From a virus, in the IMG/VR virus record IMGVR_UViG_3300044910_000908, positions 17,068 through 81,067 of that record: a stretch of DNA of 64,000 bases. One strand, written 5' to 3'. The position numbers and the translations under genes are program-made. The notes under the pieces are model-generated. The model had not been told where the DNA came from, made no database searches, and saw nothing but the letters and a program-made list of their open reading frames with translations. Positions 3,800-61,000 of this stretch are shown piece by piece; position 1 is the first letter of the stretch, and each line of letters begins with the position of its first letter.

Positions 3800-4885
3800 T
3801 TAGAAATTTTCCCAATAGATAACATCTGTTCCTACTGGTAGAATTCTATTAACACTGGTAGATTGAACAAAAACTTTGAAATTAGAATGGTCACCAGGTC
3901 TAACTCGAACATCAGAATATTTAGGTAATCCAATCATATCTCTAGCAACATCACCAGAATAAACATGTTTAGATGTTTTATCTTGAATAAGAATTAATTT
4001 ATTTGCTTGGATTTTATTTTCTTTTTTAACTAATTCATAAAATGAAGCTCCACGTTTCATAGAACGGCCCAATTTATGTTCTACAAAGTCTTTAATTGCG
4101 TGACCTTCTGCAGCAGTTTGAACTGTCCATTGTAGAATTTCTGAAGAAATATCAGTTAATACAGATTTAACTTCTGTAAGTGATACTTTATCAAGTGAAG
4201 TATAAAATGAAGAAGTTGAAGTTGCACCAGTTGCACGACTTCTGAAATAACCACCAATTGCTTGAGTTGTTACTTGAGAAGCTTGGTCAAGACCTTTAGT
4301 TGTTTGTTCCCATTCCTGAATATTGCCTTCAAAAATATCTAATGTTTTAGCTAATTTTTTACCATATCCTTTAGGAACTCGAAATACAAATGACCATCGA
4401 TCTGTTGCGTGTAATTGTTTGATTTTACTAGCTAAAGTTATTGCATTCCATTTAATTGAAGCATTTTCTTCACCATCTGTAATAATCATCAGAAGAAATG
4501 ATGTATTGATATCAGATGCTTCAGGTAATGCTTCAAACATTTCAATCAATTCACCAACGCTATCATAAAGTGGTGTTCCTCTACCATTAGCTTCATAGTT
4601 GCTTTCTGGAATTGGTTTTAAAACAGTGACAGATGAATTAATGATTTCTCGTTTAACAGTAGCTGACGCACCAGCACCACAATTAACAACTGATACAATA
4701 ACATCTTGGTTATGTTCTATTGCATTTTGTTTAATACTTGCTATATTGGTATTGTAATCTCTAGCTGCTGCTTTAGTGATACCTCTCATTGAGGCGCTAT
4801 GGTCCAATGAAAAGCCGATGAAAGTTTTGATATTAGGTTGATTTTCCATAAAATTCTCCAAAAAGTATAAAGTTATTTTTCTCAT
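3800..4885 (-). CDS. von Willebrand factor A (vWA) domain protein
   Basis: MIDAS-like DHSASM, GTPLYD, IITDGEENAS. Confidence 0.85.
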   Translation of the reverse strand: MRKITLYFLENFMENQPNIKTFIGFSLDHSASMRGITKAAARDYNTNIASIKQNAIEHNQDVIVSVVNCGAGASATVKREIINSSVTVLKPIPESNYEANGRGTPLYDSVGELIEMFEALPEASDINTSFLLMIITDGEENASIKWNAITLASKIKQLHATDRWSFVFRVPKGYGKKLAKTLDIFEGNIQEWEQTTKGLDQASQVTTQAIGGYFRSRATGATSTSSFYTSLDKVSLTEVKSVLTDISSEILQWTVQTAAEGHAIKDFVEHKLGRSMKRGASFYELVKKENKIQANKLILIQDKTSKHVYSGDVARDMIGLPKYSDVRVRPGDHSNFKVFVQSTSVNRILPVGTDVIYWENF

Positions 4886-7274: not shown

Positions 7275-9533
7275 TTAAACTACACAAGCACCTGATTTAC
7301 AACCACCTTCTTCAATATTATCAGAAGAACCATCATTAACTTGATTGTAATACATAGTACACATTCCCATTTTATATGCAAATAATAAATCCTCAATCAA
7401 TCTTGACATTTTAATTTCACCTTTAGAAGGGTCATACGAAGTGTTGCATGAAATAAATTGATCATTATATTTCTGAAATACTGCAGTAGTTTTCAAGTAA
7501 TCTTTACTATCAACATTCCACAATGTTTCATATAAATGATTTAATTTGTTATATTCAGGAACAACTTGTGGTAATACTCCATCTTTAGAACCTTTAATAC
7601 TAATTAAATCTCTAGGAGGTTCAATACCATTTGTCTCATTAGAAATTTGAGATGATGTTTCACTTGGAAAAATTGTTGATAATGTTGCATTTCTAATACC
7701 ATATTTTTTCAAATCTTCTTTTAATTCATCCCATGGCATTAATGGAGCATTAACTGGAATTTTATTTAAATCTCTCGGAACAATACCATCATGATATTTT
7801 GTTCTTAATTCAATAGAACCAAATTCTTTTGCTAATTGATTAGATGCTTGAATTAAATAAAAATTCTGTTTCTCAATCATTGTTTCAGTCGCAAGTAATG
7901 CTTCATCTGTACCCCATTGTAATCTTCCTTTTGCTAACCAATGAGCATAACCAATTAAACCAATGCCTAATGGACGACATAATTTAGTAGCTCTTTCAGC
8001 AGCATCAATTGGATATTCTTGATAATCTAATAAAGCATCTAAAGCTCTAACACCCATTTCACAACAATCTTTTAAAATTCTTTCTTCTTTTTCAGATAAA
8101 TTCTTACTAAATTTACCCCAATTAGTAGCTAATAATGTACATAAATTTAATAATGAATTACCATCTCCAAGCGGAGTTGTTCGCTGTCCAATTTCCGTAC
8201 ATAAATTAGTCATATAAACTGGTTCATAATAAGGTGTTTGATAATTGACATTATCAGCATTAAAAATATAAATACGTCCAGTTTCATATCTTTCATTCAT
8301 TAATTTTGTAAAGTATTCAAATGCAGGAATAGTTTTCTTTACAACTTTATTTGAGTTTTCATATTTTTCATATAATTCTTCAAATTTTTCTAAATCTGGA
8401 GAATAAAAAGCTTCATATAAATCTGGAACTTCTTCAGGGCTAAATAATGTAATATTTCCACCTGTGATTAATCTTTTATACATTGTTCCATTAAGAGCAA
8501 CAACATAATCTAAAGTTCTAATACGAGTTTCTTCAGTTCCTTTATTGTTTTTTAATTCAATTAATTTTTCAAATTCTAAATGCCATCCAGGATAATTAAT
8601 AGAAGCTGAAGCCGACCTAATTCCACCTTGCGATACTGCTCTTAAAGAAGAATTCATTAATTTTAAATAAGGAATAACACCAGTTGTAATAGCATCTCCT
8701 TGTCTAACTTGTTGTCCTTCAGCACGTAATCTTCCAATATTTAAACCAATACCAGCTTTTCTTGAAGCATAATCAATAATAGCTGCTGATGTAGCTTTAA
8801 TAGAATTTAAGCTATCACCACAATCCATTAATGTGCAAGAAGAAAATTGTTTTACATTAGTTCTTAATCCAGCCATAATAGGTGTAGGAAGAGAAATATA
8901 ATGTTGGCTAACCAAATCATAAAATTTCTTGATGTATCCCATACGAGTAGCAATTGGGTACGCGCCAAATAATAATGCTGGAACTAAAATATAAGGGAAT
9001 TGAAATGTTTCATATACATGTTTAGTTTTTCTATTTTGAACTAAATATTTTTTACGCATTTGTTCTGAACCTGCATAACGAAATAAATCATCTCTATTAT
9101 GGTCAATCATATCATTTAAAATATTAAATTCTTCTTCATTATAAAATTCTAATAATTCTTTAGTATAAACACCTAATGCCACATTTTTCTTAACAACATC
9201 ATATAAATGAGGTGGTGTATTAGAACCAAATGCTTCTTTACGAATAGATAACCAATTTAATCTAGCAGCAACATGATCATAATTTGGAGTATCTTCATTA
9301 ATTAAATCTGCAGATGCTTTAATTAAAGTTTGGTGAATTGAAGAAGTTTTAATATTTGGAACGAAATGTGGATTAGCTGTCATTTCAATTTGAGAAACAG
9401 ATACGCCTTTAATTGGTGGAAAAATATCATCTCCATTACATGCCCAATTAATCACTTGATGAATTTTAGAAAGATCTAATAGTTCTTTTGTTCCATTTCG
9501 TTTAGTAACAAATATATTACTGGTTTGAGTCAT
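7275..9533 (-). CDS. nrdA: Ribonucleotide reductase class Ia alpha subunit
   Basis: ATP cone VTKRNG, PTPIMAG, QFSSC, TNLCTEI, PSETSS, C-terminal CKSGAC; uninterrupted. Confidence 0.97.
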   Translation of the reverse strand: MTQTSNIFVTKRNGTKELLDLSKIHQVINWACNGDDIFPPIKGVSVSQIEMTANPHFVPNIKTSSIHQTLIKASADLINEDTPNYDHVAARLNWLSIRKEAFGSNTPPHLYDVVKKNVALGVYTKELLEFYNEEEFNILNDMIDHNRDDLFRYAGSEQMRKKYLVQNRKTKHVYETFQFPYILVPALLFGAYPIATRMGYIKKFYDLVSQHYISLPTPIMAGLRTNVKQFSSCTLMDCGDSLNSIKATSAAIIDYASRKAGIGLNIGRLRAEGQQVRQGDAITTGVIPYLKLMNSSLRAVSQGGIRSASASINYPGWHLEFEKLIELKNNKGTEETRIRTLDYVVALNGTMYKRLITGGNITLFSPEEVPDLYEAFYSPDLEKFEELYEKYENSNKVVKKTIPAFEYFTKLMNERYETGRIYIFNADNVNYQTPYYEPVYMTNLCTEIGQRTTPLGDGNSLLNLCTLLATNWGKFSKNLSEKEERILKDCCEMGVRALDALLDYQEYPIDAAERATKLCRPLGIGLIGYAHWLAKGRLQWGTDEALLATETMIEKQNFYLIQASNQLAKEFGSIELRTKYHDGIVPRDLNKIPVNAPLMPWDELKEDLKKYGIRNATLSTIFPSETSSQISNETNGIEPPRDLISIKGSKDGVLPQVVPEYNKLNHLYETLWNVDSKDYLKTTAVFQKYNDQFISCNTSYDPSKGEIKMSRLIEDLLFAYKMGMCTMYYNQVNDGSSDNIEEGGCKSGACVV

Positions 9534-11618: not shown

Positions 11619-12006
11619 GTCTTACATTTTCCTTCTCAGTTAAATTATGATCTAAATGTATTACATTAAGCCAAGAACCACAATTTTGCTCAATTATATT
11701 TTTTTGAATAGGGTCATCTTCAAAATGACAATTAATTTTAATTCCAATATTTTTCAATTTATTCAAAACTTGAGCTTTATGCATTCCAGAACTTTCTCTA
11801 GTTTTTTCATGAAATTGCAAATTGTTAAAAAATACTTTATTAAAAATATTTCTTTTTTCTAGCATTGAAATTGTTTCAACGTATTCTTCAAAAGACCTAC
11901 CAGTAATAATAATATCATTAGGACCTGGATAAACTCCTTCGATAGAGTTATTAATAAAAATAACTCCATCGATATCGTAACTATTAATAGGGGAATGATT
12001 AAACAT
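11608..12006 (-). CDS. Minimal HAD-family phosphatase
   Basis: YDIDGVI, ITGR, conserved Lys (HK), HFEDD. Confidence 0.8.
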   Translation of the reverse strand: MFNHSPINSYDIDGVIFINNSIEGVYPGPNDIIITGRSFEEYVETISMLEKRNIFNKVFFNNLQFHEKTRESSGMHKAQVLNKLKNIGIKINCHFEDDPIQKNIIEQNCGSWLNVIHLDHNLTEKENVRHEA

Positions 12007-13218
12007 TTATTCTCCTATCAATCTCAAATAATCCATTCCACCGCTATTATATTCATCCCATGCAAATTTAATTGCATCTTCAGGAGTTGTTTGTTTACTA
12101 GTAATATCTGTTAATTGACGATTAGCTAATGCTTCGCATTCTTTATAAGATAAATCATAAGTTAATTGTTTAGGCGGAGATTTTTGAGTAAACGCAGAAG
12201 GTCCTCTTAAACAACCAATAATTCCCATTTCTTTTGCAACTTTAATATATCTTAAAGCATCAATTACAACACCACTAGAATTTTCTGAATCTTGAACAGA
12301 TAATTTAACATCTACAGTAATTGGAGCATCTCCAAAACCTCTAAGATGTAAATTAAAGTAAGCAATTTTATTATCTTTTAAATAAGGAATAAAAGTTGAA
12401 GGACCAGCAAATAAAGCATCGTCATCAACAGGAATTCCTCTTAAATCATTTTGTGCTCTAATAACATTTTCTTTTGATACTTTTTTATGTTTTAATCTTG
12501 TTTGAACCATCATATTATTAAAATCGGTATTACCTCCAACGTTTAATTGTTGATGATAATCAACTATCATACCTCGACTAAATGCTAGTTCTTGTAACAT
12601 TTGAGATAAAATAGAAGCTCCAAATTGAGATTTCATATCAGAACCAATATAAGGAATGCCAGCACTAATAAATTTTTCTTCCCATTTAGGATGATTTAAT
12701 GTTAATACAGGAATACAATTCAAAAATGAAATTTTATGTTCAATACATTTTTCAGCCCACCATTCAGTTGCATTTTGAGAACCTACTGGCAAGTAATTGA
12801 TAATAATTTCAACGCCTGTTTCTTTTAGAATTTTATCAATATCACAAACATCTTCATTAGAAATTCTGAAACCCATTCTTTCTGGTTGAGTTTGCATATA
12901 ATCAGAAACACCGTCTAATACTGGACCCATATTAACAATTGGGCCATCAGGAACATCTTTACAAAATACTCTAGCGCAATTAGGTTGAGCAAAAATAGCT
13001 TCGCCTACTGGACGACCAACTTTTCTTCTATCAACATCAAAAGCTGCTACTACTTGAATATCAGCAGGATGATAACCTCCAATTCTGTCAAACATAACAC
13101 CGGGAATAGAATTTCCTTCAGCATCTTCATCATGATCTTTATAATATTCAAGGCCTTGATAAAGAGAAGAAAAACAATTACCAACACCAACTACACAAAC
13201 TTTAATTTTTTTTGACAT
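12007..13218 (-). CDS. ino1: myo-inositol-1-phosphate synthase
   Basis: VGVGNCFSSLYQG NAD-binding motif, NYLPVGS, DMKSQFGA, QLNVGGNTDF, DSENS, KSPP. Confidence 0.95.
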   Translation of the reverse strand: MSKKIKVCVVGVGNCFSSLYQGLEYYKDHDEDAEGNSIPGVMFDRIGGYHPADIQVVAAFDVDRRKVGRPVGEAIFAQPNCARVFCKDVPDGPIVNMGPVLDGVSDYMQTQPERMGFRISNEDVCDIDKILKETGVEIIINYLPVGSQNATEWWAEKCIEHKISFLNCIPVLTLNHPKWEEKFISAGIPYIGSDMKSQFGASILSQMLQELAFSRGMIVDYHQQLNVGGNTDFNNMMVQTRLKHKKVSKENVIRAQNDLRGIPVDDDALFAGPSTFIPYLKDNKIAYFNLHLRGFGDAPITVDVKLSVQDSENSSGVVIDALRYIKVAKEMGIIGCLRGPSAFTQKSPPKQLTYDLSYKECEALANRQLTDITSKQTTPEDAIKFAWDEYNSGGMDYLRLIGE

Positions 13219-22919: not shown

Positions 22920-23981
22920 TTATTCTTGTTCTTCATTTAATAATTCAGATAATTCTTCTTCTACTTGATTTACAACTTCTGTGTCCTGTTGTAATAACTT
23001 AGGATGACTGAATAATTTCTGAACCAATTCTTCATTCAATTGCTTACGTTGGAATTTAATATCTCCAGTTGGCAATGAACATGAATACCATGCTCCGCCT
23101 TTAGTCACAATACCATCTACTTCTAATGACTCAAGTAATCCTGAATAAGGAGACATACCAGTGGAATAAGGAACTTCAATTTCAACTTTAGAACCTAATT
23201 TAGCAAAACGAGTTTTAAAAGCTTCTACTCGCATACGAATACCAATAACTGCGCTATCTTCTCGTAATTTTAATCTTGTAATTAAACCAATAATTGAAGG
23301 GAAAAAACGTGTTGAATTAGTAATTGCCCATTCACCATCCCCTTTTAACGGGTCAGCTGGATAAACATGGTCGGTTAAAATAAAAGTAATCGGTAATCTA
23401 GCTATTCGAGATAAAATCATACGTAACATTGCTTTAGATCTTTTTGCTCTCTGACCCATGTCGCCTTTTACAACGCCTTCTTTATCATAATTAGTTTCTT
23501 CTGTTTCAGTAGAAAGCATTGCTAAACTATCTAAAAGCATTACAATTTTTGGAGCATCATAATTAAATCTTCCATATTCTTTTTCATAAGTTGAAAAGAA
23601 TTCAGAACATATAGAGTTGACATCTTCAATTGTTCCTACTTGTAAATATGTTAAATGTTCTTCATCTGTTTTTACTCCAAGTTTCCCAAGAAATTCCAAA
23701 TCAATAGCATTTTCACTATCCATTACCACAATATGTGCTCCAGCATCTTGAGCACTTTTAAGAATATTAGAAGAAAGAAATGATTTACCAGATCCACTTG
23801 GCCCAACAAAAGCAGTAATACGTCCTTCTGGAATACCTCGGAAAAAAGAACCTGATAAATTACGATTCAAAGCATAGTTACCAGTAGAATACCAGAAATT
23901 AGGCGCGCTAATTCCAACATTTACACCTTCAATTTTTTCTAAACCTTTTTTGAAATTTTTAAGAAATCCTAAACTTGCCAT
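22920..23981 (-). CDS. uvsX: RecA-like recombinase UvsX
   Basis: STGNYALN, GPSGSGKS, DSENA, LLDSLAML, GDMGQRAK, KTRF. Confidence 0.93.
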   Translation of the reverse strand: MASLGFLKNFKKGLEKIEGVNVGISAPNFWYSTGNYALNRNLSGSFFRGIPEGRITAFVGPSGSGKSFLSSNILKSAQDAGAHIVVMDSENAIDLEFLGKLGVKTDEEHLTYLQVGTIEDVNSICSEFFSTYEKEYGRFNYDAPKIVMLLDSLAMLSTETEETNYDKEGVVKGDMGQRAKRSKAMLRMILSRIARLPITFILTDHVYPADPLKGDGEWAITNSTRFFPSIIGLITRLKLREDSAVIGIRMRVEAFKTRFAKLGSKVEIEVPYSTGMSPYSGLLESLEVDGIVTKGGAWYSCSLPTGDIKFQRKQLNEELVQKLFSHPKLLQQDTEVVNQVEEELSELLNEEQE

Positions 23982-26199: not shown

Positions 26200-27297
26200 T
26201 TAACCTCTTGTATTATTAATAATTCTAATACTATCTACTTCTGAATATCTAATACTTTGGGTAGAATAGTATTGATTAGTTACTACTTCTAGAGACATAG
26301 TTTTATCTTCACGTTGATGGATACGTTGTTCAAGCAAATATAATGGAGACATAAATTCAAATCCAATAATGTAATAATTATGTTGTCTCAAAATAGTAAC
26401 CCATTGTCTTCTAGATTTTGGGCTTAGATTTGTATTGTCAATAATAATATTTTTATTTTGTTTAATAAATTCATTGAATTTTTTTCTAGTATATTCATTG
26501 AATTTTTCTGCATGTTCATTACAATAATTCCAAGCTTGTTTATATAGTTCTTTTATATTTGTTGTATGTTCTGGAAATATGTTAGAATAATATTCAATTC
26601 TATAATTATCAAAACTAAAGATAACAGTATTAGCATCTTGCATTAATTTTTCAGAAACTGTGCTTTTTCCAGAACCAGAAGGACCAACCAAAATATAAGC
26701 AGTTAGACCTGAATTATGTTTTTGATCTTGTTCTTGGAGATATAGAGTTTCATTAACCCAATTAGTAACAAATGGAATTTTACTATCTTCAGTAATTCTC
26801 CCACCAGCATCTGATAATAGAACATCAGCAAACATTTGAAGATTTCCAGTCAATGCTCTTGTACTATCAATTCTAAAATCATTATAACATTTTCTACCAT
26901 AAGGCAAATGATTTTCAATCATCCATCTTACTTGACGAATTTGCAAATCAGTTAAACCAAAATTGTTATTAGATAATACATAATCTTCAAATATTCTAGC
27001 AGATACTAGTTCATGTCCAGCATATGATTTATGCTGACCACGTTTTTCTGTAAATTTTTCTACTTCACATTTTGGTTTACCAACATCATGAAATAGAAGA
27101 GCCAATTGAGAAAGTAGTCTTTCATTTTCACTTCTATTTAGAAAGAAGTGTTCTTTATAAAAACGAAGTGTCATTTGTGTATGGACGGCAGTATTTTCTT
27201 CTCTATGATAAGGAGAATTTTCCTGAGTCATGAGCATGTGATGCCAGTATGATGTTTTAGTAAAGTTATGATAGATGTCTTCAAATTGTGTAGTCAT
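26200..27297 (-). CDS. HD-domain phosphoesterase fused to polynucleotide kinase (HD-Pnk RNA end-healing enzyme)
   Basis: YHRE..VHT, FHDVGKP, GHE in the N-half; GPSGSGKS and IIIDNTN in the C-half. Confidence 0.85.
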   Translation of the reverse strand: MTTQFEDIYHNFTKTSYWHHMLMTQENSPYHREENTAVHTQMTLRFYKEHFFLNRSENERLLSQLALLFHDVGKPKCEVEKFTEKRGQHKSYAGHELVSARIFEDYVLSNNNFGLTDLQIRQVRWMIENHLPYGRKCYNDFRIDSTRALTGNLQMFADVLLSDAGGRITEDSKIPFVTNWVNETLYLQEQDQKHNSGLTAYILVGPSGSGKSTVSEKLMQDANTVIFSFDNYRIEYYSNIFPEHTTNIKELYKQAWNYCNEHAEKFNEYTRKKFNEFIKQNKNIIIDNTNLSPKSRRQWVTILRQHNYYIIGFEFMSPLYLLEQRIHQREDKTMSLEVVTNQYYSTQSIRYSEVDSIRIINNTRG

Positions 27298-48701: not shown

Positions 48702-48974
48702 TTATTTATGTTGCTGTTTTTTAAATAATCTATCTAATTTTTCGTTAACGTCTGCGGAATATTGAGCAGCACGATTTGCTGCTTGTTCAGCTCTACTTGC
48801 TTTAACTTGAGCATCTTGAGCTGCCATTTTAGCATCATTTGCACTCAAATTAGCTGCATCAACACGACCACTTACACTATCAATTTGACTTTGTAAATTT
48901 TCAATATCACTAGTTGATGCACAACCAAACATAACAATTGACATTACTAAAATCATTAAACTTTTTACTACCAT
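48702..48974 (-). CDS. Lpp/OprI-family alanine-zipper outer-membrane lipoprotein
   Basis: Lipobox MFGC, Ala heptads, NEKLDRLFKK and terminal Lys. Confidence 0.88.
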   Translation of the reverse strand: MVVKSLMILVMSIVMFGCASTSDIENLQSQIDSVSGRVDAANLSANDAKMAAQDAQVKASRAEQAANRAAQYSADVNEKLDRLFKKQQHK

Positions 48975-48998: not shown

Positions 48999-49439
48999 TT
49001 ATTTAGCTTCTGCTCTCGCATAAAGCATTTTTGGTGCTTTTTCAAAATACAAAAATAAAGCAGGACATAACCATCCAGGAATATTAGGCAATTCAATATT
49101 TGGATGGTTCCAAACATACCAATTACCAACAATATCTCCTAAATACATTTTTCCTTCTTTAACCCATTTTCCTTCTAATTGATAACCTTCAAAAGGTTTA
49201 TCACTAAAAATTAATTTAAAACCTTTATCAGCATCTTTAATTGGTTGAGTAATATAATCAGTCACTAAATCAGTTCCAGATACTAATGCTTCATACTTCA
49301 AACCTACTCGTTCATCGTCAAATACCCAAACATCTTGTCCTTCTATCTGATTTCCTTCACCATCATCCATAACATAAGCTGTTCCAGATAATCGATAAGG
49401 ATAAATTTCTAACATCTTTGTTTTCTTTCTTCCAAACAT
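48999..49439 (-). CDS. Conserved hypothetical protein (DUF6717-like)
   Basis: WVFDDERVGL, GWLCPALFLYF. Confidence 0.6.
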   Translation of the reverse strand: MFGRKKTKMLEIYPYRLSGTAYVMDDGEGNQIEGQDVWVFDDERVGLKYEALVSGTDLVTDYITQPIKDADKGFKLIFSDKPFEGYQLEGKWVKEGKMYLGDIVGNWYVWNHPNIELPNIPGWLCPALFLYFEKAPKMLYARAEAK

Positions 49440-49455
49440 ATAATGACTCTATTAT

Positions 49456-49559
49456 TGGAGCTCGAGAGAGGATTTGAACCTCCGACCGGCTGATTGTTCA
49501 ATACTCTCTTTAGAAAGCATTCAACAAATCAGCTGCTCTACCAACTGAGCTACTCGAGC
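49456..49559 (-). tRNA. tRNA-Thr(UGU) interrupted by a 28-nt insert after the anticodon
   Basis: GCTCGAG/CTCGAGC acceptor, D arm GCTC-AGTTGGTA-GAGC, GCTGA/TCAGC anticodon stem, T loop TTCAAAT, encoded CCA; removing 49496-49523 gives a canonical 76-nt tRNA. Confidence 0.9.
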
Positions 49560-50292
49560 AATATTTTTTATTTATAATATTTTAAAAGTAATGTAATAAC
49601 CATTAACTTTCATTTACTCCACGTTTAGTTAATTCTTTTTTAATCAACGCGTTTCTTTTCTTTTTATTGCCGTAAGCTGCTTGCAATTTATCAATTTTCA
49701 TTGTTGCTAATACTTGACCATGTTTTGAAACTTTTGCTGACATTAACTTCTCCTCTTTGTTGTAATAAAATATTTCTTAATATTCTTTATATAGCAGAAA
49801 ACATTAAGAAATATTCTACATATTTCCTGTTGAAGTGTTTAACTTTTCTTTTATAAGAAGTTTTATCTTCTTCAACTTTTGGTTTATTAAATTGATGACA
49901 ATGTTTTGCCACAAAATTATTTATTATTGGTTTGTTTTTCTTTTTCATATTTAATTTCTCCTATTATAACAATCTGATTGCCAATGACCATTATTATTTA
50001 TATGACATATTTTTTCACTTGACATATTAGGTAATTTTACATCCATAACATAACCAAGTGATACTATCAATATCAATAATGTAAGTAGTATTAATTTTAT
50101 TGTAAATTTATCCATCTTTGCATTCTCTTTGCCAAACAACGTGATTACTATTATTTCCTTTAACATATACAACACACTGTTGTAATCCTGCTTTTGCCAT
50201 TTGTTCATTTTCTGTTTTGCTTATATTGTCTGATATAAGCAAATAAATTAGAAAGAAAATTATACAAAAAATTAAATAATTATTTTTATCCA

Positions 50293-50727
50293 TTAAACAA
50301 TTCTCGCTTCTTCAAATTTAACTAATAATTTGCCAATACTATCATTATTCTGTTTAACTAAATAATATCCATAATAATAATCGCATATACCATCAATAAT
50401 TCCTTTATCTAATTGTGTTCCTATTTCATAGGGTGGTTCAACATTATTTTCTTCAAACCATTTTTTTCGTTCTTTTTGTAAATAATCATTAGCTATATAA
50501 TCTAAATCATCCAATGCGTTTACAAATTGTAAATCTACATCCCAACCATAATGGGTATCTAAATATTTCCCAATTTCATATCCATCGGATATTGAAGAAT
50601 ATCGATAACCATCTATCAGTATAGATAAATCGCATCCATGCTCTTTTGAAAAAGGTTCAAATGCTTTTTGTAGTAATTCAATTGTTTCTGTTGGTGCTTT
50701 AGGATATTTATCCATTGGATGTGTCAT
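50293..50727 (-). CDS. Hypothetical protein
   Basis: 144 aa ORF. Confidence 0.55.
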   Translation of the reverse strand: MTHPMDKYPKAPTETIELLQKAFEPFSKEHGCDLSILIDGYRYSSISDGYEIGKYLDTHYGWDVDLQFVNALDDLDYIANDYLQKERKKWFEENNVEPPYEIGTQLDKGIIDGICDYYYGYYLVKQNNDSIGKLLVKFEEARIV

Positions 50728-50938
50728 ATTTATTTCCTCGTTTTAACTTTAAATAAGGTTGGACCTTCAATTAATACTTTTTCACATTTAAAATTTATCT
50801 GACTTGACGATAAATTAGTAAATACAACTTTTTCGTCTGATAAACATTTACTTTGGCTAATTGTAATTTCTTCTTCTGTTGGTTTTCTTTCAACAGAGGA
50901 ACATCCAACAACTAATAAAATTAATATTAAATATCTCA

Positions 50939-51448
50939 TTATAAATATTTTTTAATAAATTCAAATTTTACTTCATTGCTATTAACATCAATATAAGAAC
51001 AATTAAATTTATTTAAAATACTTTTAATTTCTTCAGATAATTCTTGTGATTGAGCTTCATCTTGATTTCTACCAATTTGCTGATATTCATGTGTTCTATG
51101 TAAAAAGAAATTAATGTTCTCATAAGAATTAAAAATTTCAGAAGTTAATTCAGCAAGTAAAGGATAATAAGATAATTCCTTTGATTGATAAGCAATATTC
51201 ATAATTAAAGGACTATCAGTAATTACATAATCCACCTTACCTTGCAATCTTAATAATCTTCTATGTTGCTTAGCAAAAATATATAACTGGTCAGAAAATA
51301 AATTCTGACGTTCTTCCCATACTGCATCCTTAGCATATTCAGTAATCTCCTCTACATTATATCCTGCTATTTTCATATCAGCAAAAATGCGAGCTCTTAA
51401 AGTTGATTTACCACTACCAGGAGCCCCGATTAGATTAATGATTTTCAT
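50939..51448 (-). CDS. P-loop nucleotide kinase (NadR/Ttd14 AAA-like)
   Basis: INLIGAPGSGKST, EYAK, VITDSPL, GRNQ. Confidence 0.75.
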   Translation of the reverse strand: MKIINLIGAPGSGKSTLRARIFADMKIAGYNVEEITEYAKDAVWEERQNLFSDQLYIFAKQHRRLLRLQGKVDYVITDSPLIMNIAYQSKELSYYPLLAELTSEIFNSYENINFFLHRTHEYQQIGRNQDEAQSQELSEEIKSILNKFNCSYIDVNSNEVKFEFIKKYL

Positions 51449-52873
51449 ATACTACCCTAATATGCTTGTTAAAATATTTTCAGGAATACTGCTGTCATCA
51501 ACAGAACAAACTCCTTCATAATTAAAATGAACTGGAGTATTATCATTGTAATAATATTCTCCGCCTTTCCATCCTTCAAAGTGATGATTAACAGCATCTT
51601 TAAGATAATCTAACATTTGTTGGATAGTAATATCATTTTCATTTGGTGGAAAACTTACATGATCATAATATCCTCTATGAGCATGTGGATAACCAAATCC
51701 AAAAGCACAAACTTTATCTTTTGGCTGAGTTTCTAAAAGCATTCTTAATTCTTTTATAGTCATTTAATCATCCTCTCCTCTATCCCAATTCAAATTAAGT
51801 GCCTCTTGATAACCATCCATAAATATTCCATTTCTCCATTCATCAAATTGGGCAAAATCGATTTTGCGCTGTTTAACTAATTCAAACACCGTTTCAGGAG
51901 TCATTTGTTTAATTTCAAAATCATAAAATGAACCATCTGATAATGTTATTTGTATACAACTCATTTCTATATCCTCTTATTAATCTATGAGTATATAATA
52001 TACCAAAACTATTAAAAAGTAAATATTTAAATTTGATATTTGAATTTACTTAACAATTTATTTGCTTCTTCTTTATTATTTTCCAATACTGCTTTTAGAT
52101 CTTGCTCATGTTTTGCTTCTAAAATATTTAATTGTTCTTTAAGCTTTAATCCAGCTTCTTCAGGAATAATGAATTGAGGTCTAAATAACGCATTTCCATA
52201 ACTTCCGATTTTTACTAAACCATCATCTCTCACTTCATCAATAACACCGCATAATAAATATGGAAATCTATCATACTTCCAAAATGCCATTAAATTTTTA
52301 TCCATTAGATTTTACCTCTTCAAAATAAAAATGCAACGTTTGTTCTTTAGAAATTTGTTTATAACATCTTGCAATGTCACAACGAAAACTATCCATTCTG
52401 AATAAACATAATTGACATTTTTCATTTAAAGTAGATGAAACCATTTTTACTAATGGTCCACCACCTACGTAGTGTGCTTCACCAATTTTGAAACCATTAA
52501 CTGTTATATCTTCTGACATGTTATATTCTCTTCATCTGTTTGTGTAAATAAAAAAGCTTCTGATTTACTATCATTATACATCACAATCTCGTAAAAGTAA
52601 ATATCTTTTTTATTTAAAACACCTCTAAAAGACTTATCAATATTCAGCATTTGCGGTAAATTTGCAACTTGATTAAAGAATTTTACAACTCTATCTCTAT
52701 AAGTTTCTGAACTATCTTGAGCTAATTTGATTGTTACTCTGGTGGGAGTAATAGTCAATTTAAATCGACTATTACCTTTATCTTGAATTTCTAATGTTTT
52801 CATCTTTTTATATACTCTTTTTTCATCGAATTTGAAATATTATACACTAAATCCCAAAAAAGTAAAACTATTT

Positions 52874-54064
52874 TTAATAAAATCTCAAAATTGTTTTATA
52901 GGTATTGGCTAATGGAGCAGGCATAGTCATTAAAACTTTATTAACCGTTTCTACTTTTACATTATTATCCTGTAAATATTGTAGAACTTGTTCATATTGA
53001 ATTAATGGATAATTTTCATCAGTTGTAGTTTCAGGGTAAAATGAATGAAAATTTAATATTAACCATTCATTATTGGCTATGGCATTGTCAATCCACTTCT
53101 CAATCAACCCTACTGGTGTCCATTTATCAACACTAATTCTATTGATATTGGTTCTATCCACTATTGGTAAAATATTATTCATTCCATCAATATTTAACAT
53201 TGCTAAATAATTACTTTTTACAACATTAGCAACTCTATCATTATGAATACCATTAGGATAAGCGAATACTGAATTCCCCTTAGTATTGTTAGATGTTAAG
53301 TAATTTTTAGTAGTGGAAATAATAGAACTTAATTTAGTAGCTGATACAGTTTTAAGATTGTATTTTACTGAATGTCCGCCAATTTCCCAATTTGAACTAT
53401 TAATCTGATTGAATTCTGTAGTTGATATAAATGGAGATGTATTAAAAACATTCTCATCAATATAAATACTTGTGTCAATATTATAACTTTGAGATAATTG
53501 TAAAGCATCCATTATTGTTTCATTGCCATCATCTATAGTTATTGAAACAATTGGATTAGTTCCTGTGCTAGGAATAATTTCTAAATTTGAAATTTGTGCT
53601 GAAATTCTGGATCCGCCTCTATCTCGCAATCTCCACATAAATGAATTAATTTGAGATGCATTAGGAGAACCGTATTTGTATAATTCACTAAAAGGAATAA
53701 CCACATTTATCCATTGATTATTAGTAGGAGATTGAATATGCCAACTTAAATCAATTTCATATGTATTATTAAAATCAGTTCCAGAACTTGAAAACATTAA
53801 AGAAAATTCATCTAATTGGGACCAATCAGAAACTTTAATTCTTGCTCTAATACCTGATTTTTCGATAGAAATAGGAGTATCATAATAAGAAAAAACTCCA
53901 GAATATTCCATCCATCCTGTAGTGTTTAAAGAAATAATATTAGAAGTTGTATTAACTGAATACGACGTGTAATCATAATATTGATATAATTCCTGTTTTA
54001 CAATTTTACTATATGTTAATGTTGGCAATAACATTAACATAATAAATACTATTTTTTTAATCAT
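52874..54064 (-). CDS. Secreted polysaccharide deacetylase (CE4/NodB) with N-terminal beta domain
   Basis: Signal peptide; SITIDDG, EIGGHS, FAYPNG, LNFH. Confidence 0.85.
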   Translation of the reverse strand: MIKKIVFIMLMLLPTLTYSKIVKQELYQYYDYTSYSVNTTSNIISLNTTGWMEYSGVFSYYDTPISIEKSGIRARIKVSDWSQLDEFSLMFSSSGTDFNNTYEIDLSWHIQSPTNNQWINVVIPFSELYKYGSPNASQINSFMWRLRDRGGSRISAQISNLEIIPSTGTNPIVSITIDDGNETIMDALQLSQSYNIDTSIYIDENVFNTSPFISTTEFNQINSSNWEIGGHSVKYNLKTVSATKLSSIISTTKNYLTSNNTKGNSVFAYPNGIHNDRVANVVKSNYLAMLNIDGMNNILPIVDRTNINRISVDKWTPVGLIEKWIDNAIANNEWLILNFHSFYPETTTDENYPLIQYEQVLQYLQDNNVKVETVNKVLMTMPAPLANTYKTILRFY

Positions 54065-54165
54065 ATATTCTAATCTCCTTTATTAATATCTCGTAAAATT
54101 AATCTTCTAAATTTCTTATCAACATCATGAGACCAAACTCTATGATTTAAAATAAGAATGCTCTG

Positions 54166-54271
54166 CTGACACGGAGGGACTCGAACCCCCAACCCTCTGA
54201 TTAAGTGAAGAACTCTCTATCCATGAAAGTTCTTGGGTCAGTCAGATGCACTGCCATTGTGCTACATGTCA
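54166..54271 (-). tRNA. tRNA, most likely Asn(GUU) (alternative Lys-CUU), interrupted by a 34-nt insert; no encoded CCA
   Basis: TGACATG/CGTGTCA acceptor (U1-A72, G73), GCAC/GTGC D stem, TCTGA/TCAGA anticodon stem, T loop TTCGAGT; removing 54205-54238 gives loop CU-GUU-AA. Confidence 0.85.
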
Positions 54272-55258
54272 GCAGAGCATTCTTTATATACTTTTATTTA
54301 TTAAAAATCCGGGGACTCCAGTTTGAGCATTGTTAAGAGGCTTGAAGTCCAATTGTTATTTTATTTATTCAATAAAATTAATCTTAAAACAAACTCTGCC
54401 TTTAAATGATTTCCACCAAGTAATAACAAAACTATCAGCTTTTTCAATTTGCTCTTTTTCAGATTAAGCTCTATGCTTAAACTTATCAACAAAAATGTCA
54501 ATACCTTTAAGAAATAAAAATACACTGAAAAGACCAATATATGTTCCTATACATATCAACCCTAGACCCAAACTAGTAACTTCTGGCCATATTTGTTCTG
54601 GATGATACCCACCTATTACTATAATTCCAAGACAAATGATGGGCCAAATTAACAAACAAAATACGAATACAGATAAAAGTGATAGTTTAAAAGCTCCAAC
54701 GAAAACTTGTCTAACATATTTACAAAAATTTTCACTAGGATAGACATGATCAAAACTAGCTAATTTATAATGTAAGGAAGATTTTTTAAAATTTAAAGTT
54801 TTCATTTTATATTACTCATTTTGTAAAAGGTTTTTTCAGTTATTGTAAAACTGCCATTCGTCAATAACTTTTTTTGCATTCCATATTTTTTCATCAACTC
54901 ATAAACATTTATTGTTGTATCAGTTTCTGCTTGATTGCCAAATTCTTTTAACTTAAACCAACTAATATGAACAACTTTCCAAGCATAATAGAAAAAATGA
55001 TTAATATAAATTATATCCTTTTCTCTTTCAGTCAACTCCAAATCTTCTAATAAAGATTGATATTGAATATCAACTTCACCATAAGGGAATCCAACTGAAT
55101 CAGAATTATTCATTATATAATAACTTCTAGCAACTGAAATAATTTTTGATAATTTTGTTTCTTCAGTAGCAGCAATTTTAAAAGCAGTCTCAACGTTCAT
55201 CACTTATCTCCAATTTGTTAAGATAAATTATATAATACTTCTCGTTAAAAGTAAACAA

Positions 55259-59894: not shown

Positions 59895-60533
59895 TCAATT
59901 GTCATTTTTTAACCTATTAGGTATTATTGGTTTATTCATCCAATGATCGTCTGTGACAACGTGGTTCTTTCTAACATATTTGGCAACACTATGTTTAAAT
60001 GCTGATATATGAAAAATATCTTTTAATCTAATTACAAATCCTTCTTGTTTTTCAAAATTCATTGTATTAATTAATTCATTTATAATATCTTCATTATACA
60101 TTCCATCATATAATACTGGAACTGTTGTTAATCCTAAGTTTCTACATTCTTCAACAGTATCATCCCAATGACAACATAAATCATTAGAATACGTTGAAAA
60201 TACTTCAAAATAAGAAGTTAAATTATCGTAAGGAATACTGTGTTGAGCATAAAGATTTTCACCACAAAATCTTAAACTTTCATGAACTTGATATGCAATT
60301 AAAGGAACAACATTGCCTTTAATCCAATTTCGAGAAGGATGATTATTACTATCAATAGAACGAGCGTGAAGATAACCATCAGCATAAATCGTGGTATTTT
60401 CGCCATCTCGTTTTTCAGAAATGATAATATGTTTATTTTTAAAATGGTCCATATTCCTCAGAACTTTATCATCTGATGTAGCACCAGGTGATTGAGGAAT
60501 ATGGAATGTTCTTTGATATTTAATTCTGTCCAT
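59895..60533 (-). CDS. ATP-dependent RNA ligase (Rnl2-like nucleotidyltransferase domain)
   Basis: EKRDGEN motif I, GEN, FEVF, EGFV, AKYVR. Confidence 0.85.
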   Translation of the reverse strand: MDRIKYQRTFHIPQSPGATSDDKVLRNMDHFKNKHIIISEKRDGENTTIYADGYLHARSIDSNNHPSRNWIKGNVVPLIAYQVHESLRFCGENLYAQHSIPYDNLTSYFEVFSTYSNDLCCHWDDTVEECRNLGLTTVPVLYDGMYNEDIINELINTMNFEKQEGFVIRLKDIFHISAFKHSVAKYVRKNHVVTDDHWMNKPIIPNRLKNDN

Positions 60534-61000
60534 TACAAACTTTTCAACAAATTTTCAGGTTTAACCATTTCTTTATTGATATAAAAATGGCCGTGGGAAA
60601 ATACAACTTTTTTATCATTTACTTCAAGCATAATTCCACGATTTTTAAAAGGAATATGCTTTGTATTCAAGACATCTTTCAAAGATTTCAAATCAGTGAA
60701 TGATAATTTTTTAGAAGAATCACCTCTTCTTTTACCAGAAGAAACTTCTTCATGTTCTCCATTTTTACGCATTTCTTTTAATTCTTTATTAAGAGCAATT
60801 AATTTTTCATCCATCGCTCTATGGGTTTCTTTAACAAGTTTATAAGTTGAAATTGCTACTTCATCATTTGGATTATCTTTTTTATATGCTCTAGCAACTT
60901 CTAATTCTTTATTAACAACTAGTTTTTGTTTAGCAAATTCTGCTTTTGCTGCCAATTTTTCTTTGTATGTTTGAGTTTTCATCTTAATTCTCCAATTCAT
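60533..61000 (-). CDS. Basic hypothetical protein
   Basis: 155 aa Lys-rich ORF downstream of an early-type promoter. Confidence 0.55.
   Translation of the reverse strand: MNWRIKMKTQTYKEKLAAKAEFAKQKLVVNKELEVARAYKKDNPNDEVAISTYKLVKETHRAMDEKLIALNKELKEMRKNGEHEEVSSGKRRGDSSKKLSFTDLKSLKDVLNTKHIPFKNRGIMLEVNDKKVVFSHGHFYINKEMVKPENLLKSL

Follow-up and report, generated by a model that had tools for sequence, protein, structure and literature searches.

A 34-nucleotide hairpin insert in the anticodon loop of a phage tRNA-Asn gene: a divergent member of a family of mini-introns with RNase III-like geometry

What becomes of a tRNA gene whose anticodon is interrupted by a 34-nucleotide (nt) insert, and which amino acid would its product carry? 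The question is raised by a gene at positions 54166-54271, minus strand, of a 64-kb window (the whole stretch of 64,000 nt analyzed here), which corresponds to bases 17068-81067 of the 81-kb IMG/VR record IMGVR_UViG_3300044910_000908 and comes from a large freshwater phage, a lake jumbo phage. The explanation that we favor, and to which we would give about an even chance, is that the gene encodes tRNA-Asn(GUU) and carries a divergent mini-intron after G34, a cut by RNase III followed by sealing by an RNA ligase being, to judge from sequence and predicted structure, the likely route of its removal.

On the minus strand of the window, Rfam reports four tRNAs, of which those for Gly(UCC) and Leu(UAG) are normal and two are over-long. 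The match of RF00005 to 54166-54271 covers the full model (positions 1-71) at 54.2 bits (E 7.1e-9; gathering threshold, 29), with the same result from a search of a small region, and its alignment has 37 letters where the model has 3, a surplus of 34 nt in the anticodon loop. ARAGORN overlooks the gene in its default mode and, with the intron option, returns tRNA-Asn(gtt), placing a 34-nt intron at position 34. UCUGA and UCAGA form the anticodon stem, and the 41-nt loop consists of CUG, the 34 nt, and UUAA. In the Asn register, a 5' exon (54239-54271; U1 to G34, 33 nt with a short D loop) and a 3' exon (54166-54204; U35 to G73, CCA not encoded) flank an insert at 54205-54238 (all on the minus strand), in which four unpaired nt precede a 10-bp hairpin (54208-54234; loop of 7 nt) and three unpaired nt ending in AC follow it. 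Folded alone, the insert forms this hairpin at -10.5 kcal/mol (z -3.43; matched by 1 of 200 shuffles), with 10 of 10 pairs perfect. Its five loop-proximal pairs (C-G, U-A, U-G, U-A, and C-G) are contributed by CUUUC at 54225-54229 and GAGAG at 54213-54217. The over-long gene, the composition of its loop, and the hairpin had been described in an initial annotation of this DNA, and all three were confirmed here; its remark that the precursor lacks a usable anticodon is likewise supported.

The gene lies within a larger predicted precursor (54154-54284, minus strand) composed of a 13-nt leader, the tRNA with its insert, and a 12-nt trailer. A 13-bp leader-trailer helix pairs 54272-54284 with 54154-54166, includes C-1:G73, and lets the acceptor stem grow to 20 continuous pairs; the fold of 54150-54290 reaches -62.5 kcal/mol (z -7.51), a value as good being found in none of 200 shuffles. 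The Gly, Leu, and Thr tRNAs of the window have no comparable contiguous extension. The pairing AAGAA/UUCUU occurs twice in the precursor, as the base of the hairpin and as the first five pairs of the leader-trailer helix.

A second insert of the same kind is present nearby. In the 64-kb window, the pattern CUUUC-loop-GAGAG has only two matches, both on the tRNA strand and within anticodon loops (0.33 expected by chance; two or more in 6 of 100 shuffles); with just these two copies, the core motif was ruled out as a dispersed repeat. The other match falls in the second over-long tRNA (49459-49559, minus strand; Rfam, 59.5 bits), which shows 28 surplus letters in the RF00005 alignment and which ARAGORN, again, overlooks by default and finds when introns are allowed. 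Based on the Rfam match, folds, and geometry, this is a tRNA-Thr(UGU) gene with a 28-nt canonical insert (49496-49523) between positions 36 and 37. The isotype guessed by ARAGORN, Val, was ruled out: G1-C72, C2-G71, U73, and CCA are common to this gene and the tRNA-Thr(UGU) of another viral contig (L001), and in tRNA contigs of other organisms with the same 5' half, UGU runs directly into AAUCAG.

Beyond the window, we defined a family for this analysis ("hairpin mini-introns of phage tRNAs") by a CUUU(C)/(G)AGAG core in the anticodon loop. At least 10 other distinct anticodon arms carry this core, and on the basis of its own core sequence, CUUU(C)-loop-(G)AGAG, the Asn insert is a member of this family, which occurs in tRNA genes of large phages. 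Besides the Thr gene of the window, the arms comprise three distinct Arg(UCU) arms from Aeromonas phages (Aeh1; Ah1/avDM12; PX29/AsFcp2; all interrupted at 36/37); Arg(UCU), Lys(UUU), and Asn(GUU) in a single 109-kb viral record; Arg(UCU) in a 173-kb metagenome contig (L071; 36/37); Trp(CCA) in a complete 368-kb phage (35/36); and a CAU tRNA (36/37) that was checked by a scripted cloverleaf filter only. The Thr insert of the window and the Lys insert of the 109-kb record, which is unrelated, agree at 23 of 28 aligned positions (counted by eye). Since the scan patterns demand a particular T loop and core, the family is under-sampled: scans of viral contigs gave 22 loci, 5 of them real, in one case and 8 loci in another, then 99 stretches (87 new loci parsed) with two new loci of one new member (Trp), and at least 117 stretches (106 loci parsed) with at least one new member under a strict cloverleaf filter, while a scan of metagenome contigs gave 31 loci, of which 2 were real. 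Among 185,579 bacterial and archaeal genomes, 13 pattern matches were found, none of the family kind.

The copies in Aeromonas phages (Aeh1, Ah1, avDM12-TAAL, AsFcp_1/2, and PX29; 9 GenBank records from three Straboviridae genera) also allow selection to be assessed. In GenBank, the Aeh1 gene is annotated as tRNA-Glu and that of PX29 as a two-piece tRNA-Lys, and the others are unannotated. Across the five distinct sequences of this gene, 95.2% of 230 pair cells are standard pairs, and changes on both sides are seen in 9 of the 46 pairs, of which one falls in the intron helix and the others in the acceptor, D, anticodon, and T stems; six slid controls gave 0 to 3 such changes, and 10 of 500 shuffles reached the observed value. 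The intron-bearing tRNA of these phages is thus kept under structural selection across three genera. Decay of the gene in relatives, which the initial annotation had named as a refuting observation, was looked for at the level of the family, and the outcome was the opposite: the Aeromonas phage copy is retained, with compensatory changes.

How the inserts might be cut out is suggested by their geometry. In all 10 other arms, the letters between anticodon stem and core total 21 (11+10 or 10+11), and the anticodon loop comes out at 7 nt only with one junction 6 nt ahead of the core and the other 8 nt behind it. This rule holds for members interrupted at 36/37 (Thr, Arg, Lys, and CAU) and at 35/36 (Trp and the Asn gene of L025), the anticodon so obtained agreeing in the latter two with the body of the tRNA; the cuts are therefore tied to the hairpin and not to a position in the tRNA. 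The first nt of a family insert pairs with the third-last, so that the excised piece would be an 11-bp helix plus loop with a 2-nt 3' overhang, and in most members the last two nt of the insert pair with the last two bases of the exon. In a typical precursor, the anticodon stem, four exon-intron pairs, and the 10- to 11-bp hairpin form one helix of about 20 bp. Counting from the cut, pairs 7 to 11 are invariant in the seven tabulated arms, except for a U-G at the loop-closing pair of PX29, while G-C and C-G are absent from pairs 1 and 3 in all seven. The core pairs C-G, U-A, U-G, and U-A, with a closing C-G, are present in 7 of 7 arms, Asn included, and the loop has 4 to 8 nt. Inserts end in A followed by C or G, with GG and GU also seen; no sequence consensus is visible at the 5' junctions of the arms compared.

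These are the features of a minimal RNase III substrate. As described by Pertzev and Nicholson (2006; PMC1540722), such a substrate requires at least 11 bp from the cut to the tetraloop, the excised upper stem-loop is 28 nt long, the distal box has a canonical UA/UG element of which the U-G is strict, G-C inhibits when placed beside the scissile bond or at position 2 of the proximal box (the third pair from the cut), the loop sequence is free, and the products have 5'-phosphate and 3'-hydroxyl ends with 2-nt 3' overhangs. By these Escherichia coli rules, and as far as sequence and predicted pairing can tell, the geometry of the family fits the minimal site at each point. The T7 substrates R1.1[WC] and uR1.1 of the same paper resemble the family in their 11-bp helix, 28-nt stem-loop, and 2-nt 3' overhang, as well as in the U-A/U-G distal element, the lack of G-C at the two sensitive proximal positions, and the free loop. 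The T7 sites are found in the leaders and spacers of mRNAs, and their flanks are not joined again (PMC1540722); the phage hairpins, in contrast, sit in an anticodon loop and would need ligation of the flanks after the predicted RNase III cleavage.

A further parallel is provided by ribosomal RNA. Intervening sequences of bacterial 23S rRNA are reportedly excised by RNase III, as is said to have been found in Salmonella by Burgin and coworkers in 1990. These sequences are, like the family, hairpin extensions in a stable RNA that are removed by host RNase III, with the difference that the 23S rRNA pieces function unligated, whereas a break in the anticodon loop of a tRNA has to be sealed.

The mechanism is best phrased as probably a cut-and-rejoin of an RNase III-shaped mini-intron. 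Host RNase III would cut out the hairpin and leave 5'-phosphate and 3'-hydroxyl ends, which are directly joinable by ATP-dependent RNA ligases, and an ATP-dependent RNA ligase of the phage would seal the nicked anticodon loop. A candidate for the sealing enzyme is encoded in the window (59895-60533, minus strand): its nucleotidyltransferase domain matches PF09414 (E 7.3e-24) and PHROG 24030, "RNA ligase" (E 9.5e-63), the latter match covering only positions 133-341 of a 342-position profile, and no solved structure was matched by sequence. The abutting upstream open reading frame (ORF; 60533-61000, minus strand) has no family match and may be the separated N-terminal part of the ligase. PF09414 was found in all five other intron-bearing phage records searched (above the cut-off in three) and PF09511 in three of the five; the three Aeromonas phage records among them also hold ligases of the Rnl1 type.

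Several observations weigh against this account, and many of them concern the Asn copy itself. With 12+12 letters around its core, it is the sole exception among 11 arms to the total of 21. At the 3' side, its junction lies 8 nt past the core, as the family rule has it, and the insert ends in AC there just as the Thr insert does, a likeness that had been pointed out before and that is supported here. At the 5' side, the rule fails: the junction required for GUU is 9 nt before the core instead of 6. The cuts predicted for this copy by the family rule (54236|54235 and 54205|54204) would leave, by letter counts from stem to core, three surplus nt (ACC; 54236-54238, minus strand) between G34 and the 5' cut, so that ligation would join CUGACC to UUAA in a 10-nt loop. 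Furthermore, pairing between the end of the 5' exon and the AC end of the insert, which most members have, is lacking here, mismatches arising in either register, and the fold places a 3-bp helix (U33-A37, G34-U36, and insert nt 1 with U35) beneath a symmetric 3x3 internal loop, which contains the junction region, followed by the hairpin. The E. coli rules also call for some two turns of helix and bar G-C from positions 2 and 4 of the proximal box; held against these rules, the Asn hairpin complies in sequence, with C.C at pair 1, A-U at pair 3, and the U-A/U-G element, but its predicted cut site is an internal loop. In their introduction, Pertzev and Nicholson (PMC1540722) note that an internal loop can limit RNase III to a single phosphodiester; the natural form of T7 R1.1, which has an internal loop where it is cut, undergoes cleavage of just one strand, and it is this form that the Asn copy resembles. 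We found no structure or known nuclease rule that would place a cut after G34. Finally, none of the relatives among the matches listed has the 34-nt form, so that nothing points to selection on the Asn copy.

The search for such relatives was extended to the surroundings of the gene. Compared by blastn with the phages in GenBank, the region yielded just three matches, each of 31 nt and in the T arm, no relative of the neighboring deacetylase was found, and the relatives of the RNA ligase (6 loci, 46-54% identity) have many tRNAs, none of them with this type of insert. In assembled contigs from three lake metatranscriptome runs and one DNA run compared with 49300-54450, no contig joins across either insert, a result that, coming from assembled contigs, is uninformative on splicing either way; the reported "joints" were dismissed as tRNAs of other organisms that share tRNA halves. 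Three rearrangements of the Asn precursor were likewise rejected: a pseudoknot of the insert's CCC with the GG of the loop has a linker too short to cross the 10-bp stem, a shifted anticodon stem built on a second CUGA leaves a loop of 6 nt and puts four surplus bases at position 26, and a 3-nt bulge that brings G34 to the scissile position loses the 3-bp lower helix.

The initial annotation was thus upheld in part only. The Asn and Thr inserts do not share one architecture, since their 5' junctions differ (6 nt in Thr and nine others, 9 nt in Asn), and precise excision, which had been assumed for the Asn copy, is not what the family geometry predicts. If the 3' junction falls at the family position, it would fix UUAA and hence the Asn register; given the three extra 5' bases and the internal loop, a GUU tRNA would then need trimming or a 5' cut that lies three bases upstream of where the family rule puts it. 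The copy might thus depend on an extra step, be handled by an enzyme with another rule, or be out of order. Even if the favored explanation is right, we consider it somewhat improbable that mature tRNA-Asn(GUU) is made from this copy, the larger share of our expectation going to poor or aberrant splicing.

The Asn copy may be defective or nondecoding, a reading that we find possible though on the unlikely side, in which a 3-nt change has put the insert out of register and either a one-strand cut or a tRNA with a 10-nt loop is the outcome; the gene would then be decaying or would have another role, such as diverting anticodon nucleases as a decoy or supplying stable tRNA halves. The 12+12 spacing seen in 1 of 11 arms, the internal loop at the junction, and the missing relatives all agree with this, as do the ability of internal loops to restrict RNase III to one phosphodiester, leaving a protective 3' hairpin (PMC1540722), and a neighborhood reminiscent of counter-defense, with an abiF-motif RNA 44 nt upstream. 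Continued use of the gene is, however, indicated by an intact tRNA body in which every stem is paired, by the perfect hairpin and intact leader-trailer helix, by its being the only tRNA-Asn in the 81-kb fragment, where Asn codons are heavily used, and by its presence in the assembly of another lake metagenome run (54015-54450 compared; identical DNA with 0 differences). That large phages, cultured T4-like Aeromonas phages included, splice their own tRNAs by means of RNase III and a phage ligase, with the Asn copy working through an added or gating step, is a proposal that we can make only tentatively.

On the enzyme side, too, not everything speaks for the proposed route. T4-like phages carry such ligases regardless, which makes their co-occurrence with the introns weak evidence. 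A gene for RNase III was found neither in the 81-kb fragment (about 23% of the genome; CheckV) nor in the five other intron-bearing phage records, and the nuclease would therefore be that of the host. In addition, the window encodes a P-loop polynucleotide-kinase-like protein (26200-27297, minus strand; Pfam AAA_33, E 4.7e-19; PHROG 505, "polynucleotide kinase," E 4.8e-19) with an N-terminal HD match of 19.6 bits, below the cut-off of 22. By sequence it is a candidate for the healing of ends, which would be required only after cuts that produce 5'-hydroxyl and cyclic phosphate ends, and, with its weak HD match, it fits that chemistry rather than the ends left by RNase III. The same holds for gene 57B of the Aeromonas phages, which is located some 25 nt upstream of the tRNA-Arg with the intron (NC_005260.1, 115033-115527, and at the same place in PX29, AsFcp_2, and avDM12): annotated as "RNA ligase" or as hypothetical, it encodes two H-x-T motifs of the 2H phosphoesterase kind, and a 2H-type protein beside an intron-bearing tRNA fits cyclic phosphate and 5'-hydroxyl ends.

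From these enzymes, a different route can be constructed, in which a dedicated phage endonuclease recognizes the hairpin and leaves a 2',3'-cyclic phosphate and a 5'-hydroxyl, a kinase/phosphoesterase heals the ends, and a ligase seals them, in the manner of T4 Pnkp/Rnl1. Such an enzyme could follow a 5' cut rule that allows the 9-nt arm of the Asn copy. The kinase-like protein and the ligase of the window, the five Aeromonas phages with an intron-bearing tRNA directly after 57B, and an invariant five-pair core that exceeds the sequence conservation known to be needed by RNase III would all find a place in it. What makes it improbable, in our estimate, is that no candidate nuclease was found, nor was one detected by Pfam or PHROGs in the ORFs adjoining the tRNA, and that the layout of 11 bp, a 2-nt stagger, and U-A/U-G is hard to explain without RNase III. 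The tRNA-intron endonuclease (PF01974), Tpt1 (PF01885), and a relative of 57B were all missing from the 81-kb fragment, an absence that means little at about 23% of a genome. Moreover, 57B is presumably located near the tRNA region in T4 as well, which is free of introns. As to the T4 system itself, the phage enzymes Pnkp and Rnl1 repair tRNAs broken in the anticodon loop, in answer to anticodon nucleases of the host (PMC7824862, PMC3400036); members of these enzyme families occur in the window and in the other intron-bearing phages, where they would instead serve routine maturation of the phage's own tRNAs.

Returning to the RNase III-type mini-intron, we asked whether Asn is the right identity. 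The CU-NNN-AA anticodon loop can be restored in four registers (CUU, GUU, GAU, and GAC), with GUU arising only from exact removal of 54205-54238 and CUU from removal of 54206-54239. The initial annotation had named these last two, both correctly, and had omitted GAU (Ile) and GAC (Val); its preference for Asn over Lys is upheld by the following evidence. In an IMG/VR pattern search, an exact 24-nt stretch of the 5' exon was found in one other viral contig, L001, which is unrelated and differs in composition and context. There it belongs to a 72-nt, nearly identical but intron-less tRNA (3851-3922) with anticodon GUU, U1-A72, and G73 that has its D arm, anticodon stem, and variable loop in common with our gene. 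(At position 33, where U is near-universal, the L001 tRNA has C, its loop being CCGUUAA.) G73 is the discriminator and an identity element of tRNA-Asn, together with U1-A72 in many bacteria. It is present in 4 of 4 phage tRNA-Asn genes examined, those of L025 and of a 279-kb phage (G001) among them, and the gene at 54166-54271 has both G73 and U1-A72. Asn codons make up 6.7% of the 15,509 codons of 68 window ORFs. Because of the L001 homologue, the G73 and U1-A72 pattern, and codon use, the assignment to Asn is well supported at the sequence level. A 3' junction at the family position, from which it follows that the 3' exon starts with UUAA and the anticodon is xUU, would agree with an Asn body.

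That another of the four registers, each of which restores the loop, is the true one, giving Lys(CUU), Ile(GAU), or Val(GAC), is by comparison very improbable. A tRNA with the loop CUCUUAA does occur in contigs of two RNA runs, and its 3' half is at least 90% like our 3' exon, but its 5' half belongs to a different tRNA. The family 3' junction, A followed by C or G 8 nt past the core, gives UUAA and excludes GAU and GAC, and CUU would break both junction rules of the family; AAG, the sole codon for a Lys(CUU) tRNA, is rare (0.75%).

We give hardly any credence to the idea that the insert is a self-splicing or self-cleaving element, a ribozyme or group I-type intron: published tRNA introns of bacteria and phages are self-splicing group I introns (PMC3984707), but 34 nt is far too small, its structure is a plain hairpin, and a search of 54000-54450 with E values up to 1 gave no ribozyme or intron family (apart from the tRNA itself, it returned an abiF motif below threshold and three rows at chance level). 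As described in the same source, group I introns do share with the Asn insert that they interrupt the anticodon loop of a bacterial-type tRNA, and they differ in being ribozymes of some hundreds of nt, whereas the Asn insert is a 34-nt hairpin without a ribozyme match. In the 279-kb phage G001, a tRNA gene with an insert of about 215 nt (L009, 10030-10331) may represent such a group I intron.

Two further groups of tRNA introns bear comparison with the mini-introns. Bulge-helix-bulge introns of archaea and eukaryotes (PMC4090602) are alike in being short introns of the anticodon loop whose 3' end pairs with the anticodon, in their protein-dependent excision, and in having a 3' cut nearer to the tRNA body than the 5' cut, as would be the case here. 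The Asn and Thr inserts, in contrast, lack two 3-nt bulges 4 bp apart, are not at position 37/38, and belong to a phage of a bacterial host; in the Asn insert, a symmetric 3x3 internal loop is found instead of the motif, and PF01974 is absent from the 81-kb fragment. The second group comprises the introns in tRNAs of Lak megaphages, termed "enigmatic" by Devoto et al. (2019; PMC6784885), to whose knowledge phage tRNA introns had previously been unreported. As in our case, those introns were spotted through over-long tRNAs and belong to very large, AT-rich phages; compared by description, the one intron set out in the text differs in being large enough for a tRNA-like fold, and the passages on these introns offer no RNase III reading (PMC6784885). 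In the literature searched, we found no published description of short hairpin or RNase III-type introns in phage tRNAs, and with its design not found in print, the family of hairpin mini-introns appears to be undescribed.

Inserts of other designs were encountered along the way. Over-long phage tRNAs with 47- to 52-nt multi-hairpin inserts in the anticodon loop, unlike the family, are present in cultured phage Aeh1 (NC_005260.1, 96387-96505) and twice in record G010 (109626-109748 and 107788-107910), and hairpin inserts of 24 to 30 nt are found in the D loop of tRNAs in G010 (143552-143648), G011 (23494-23590 and 23766-23856), and metagenome contigs (L056/L057). Beside intron-bearing tRNAs, HNH genes were observed in L025 (4599-5273, minus strand; weak, below the cut-off) and, with a clear HNH_3 match, in L071, where HNH_3 and LAGLIDADG-type homing-endonuclease genes adjoin such tRNAs at 11656-12252 and 8709-9497 (both on the minus strand). 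Family inserts might split the target sites of homing nucleases at the DNA level; next to the two intron-bearing tRNAs of the window, no homing-endonuclease gene was detected by Pfam or PHROGs. G001, which is related to our phage by its RNA ligase, has 44 tRNA matches (L008/L009), and in many of these the variable arm is long although the isotype (Met, Ile, His, or Gly) does not usually have such an arm. Three more ligase relatives (G005, G006, and G003; loci L012, L013, and L014) have tRNAs with the amber-suppressing anticodon CUA, in one case together with a long variable arm, which suggests stop-codon recoding in these phages.

The setting of the window itself can be summarized briefly. DNA runs that contain it are lake and freshwater metagenomes, and 65-75% of its words are present in four metatranscriptome runs. 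Its G+C content is 26-31%, nearly all ORFs are on the minus strand, and the stop codons of the 68 ORFs are TAA (55), TGA (8), and TAG (5). A phage gene at 48702-48974 (minus strand) matches the alanine-zipper outer membrane lipoprotein family PF11839 (E 5.2e-18), which hints at a Gram-negative host. The abiF-motif RNA mentioned above (RF03085; 54315-54347, minus strand, and thus on the same strand as tRNA-Asn) scores 31.9 bits against a threshold of 37 (E 0.00026 in a 199-nt search) and has a nearly consensus central loop and a shortened outer stem. No AbiF gene follows it; possibly it represents a phage version of an antitoxin-like RNA of abortive infection.

As far as is known, the tRNA introns of bacteria and their viruses are all self-splicing, and it is archaea and eukaryotes that characteristically splice tRNAs by means of proteins. 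If the route proposed here is correct, hairpin introns of 26 to 34 nt with RNase III-like geometry, in phages that carry RNA ligases, would constitute a third way of tRNA splicing, a protein-only route undescribed for bacteria, and RNA ligases of the T4 type would gain a routine physiological substrate beyond repair. Standard bacterial tRNA finders overlook such genes or assign them the wrong anticodon. Since the same design is present in the cultured phages Aeh1, Ah1, and PX29, the proposal is directly testable, and the Asn copy is an informative outlier that would either expose an extra processing step or show how such introns fail.

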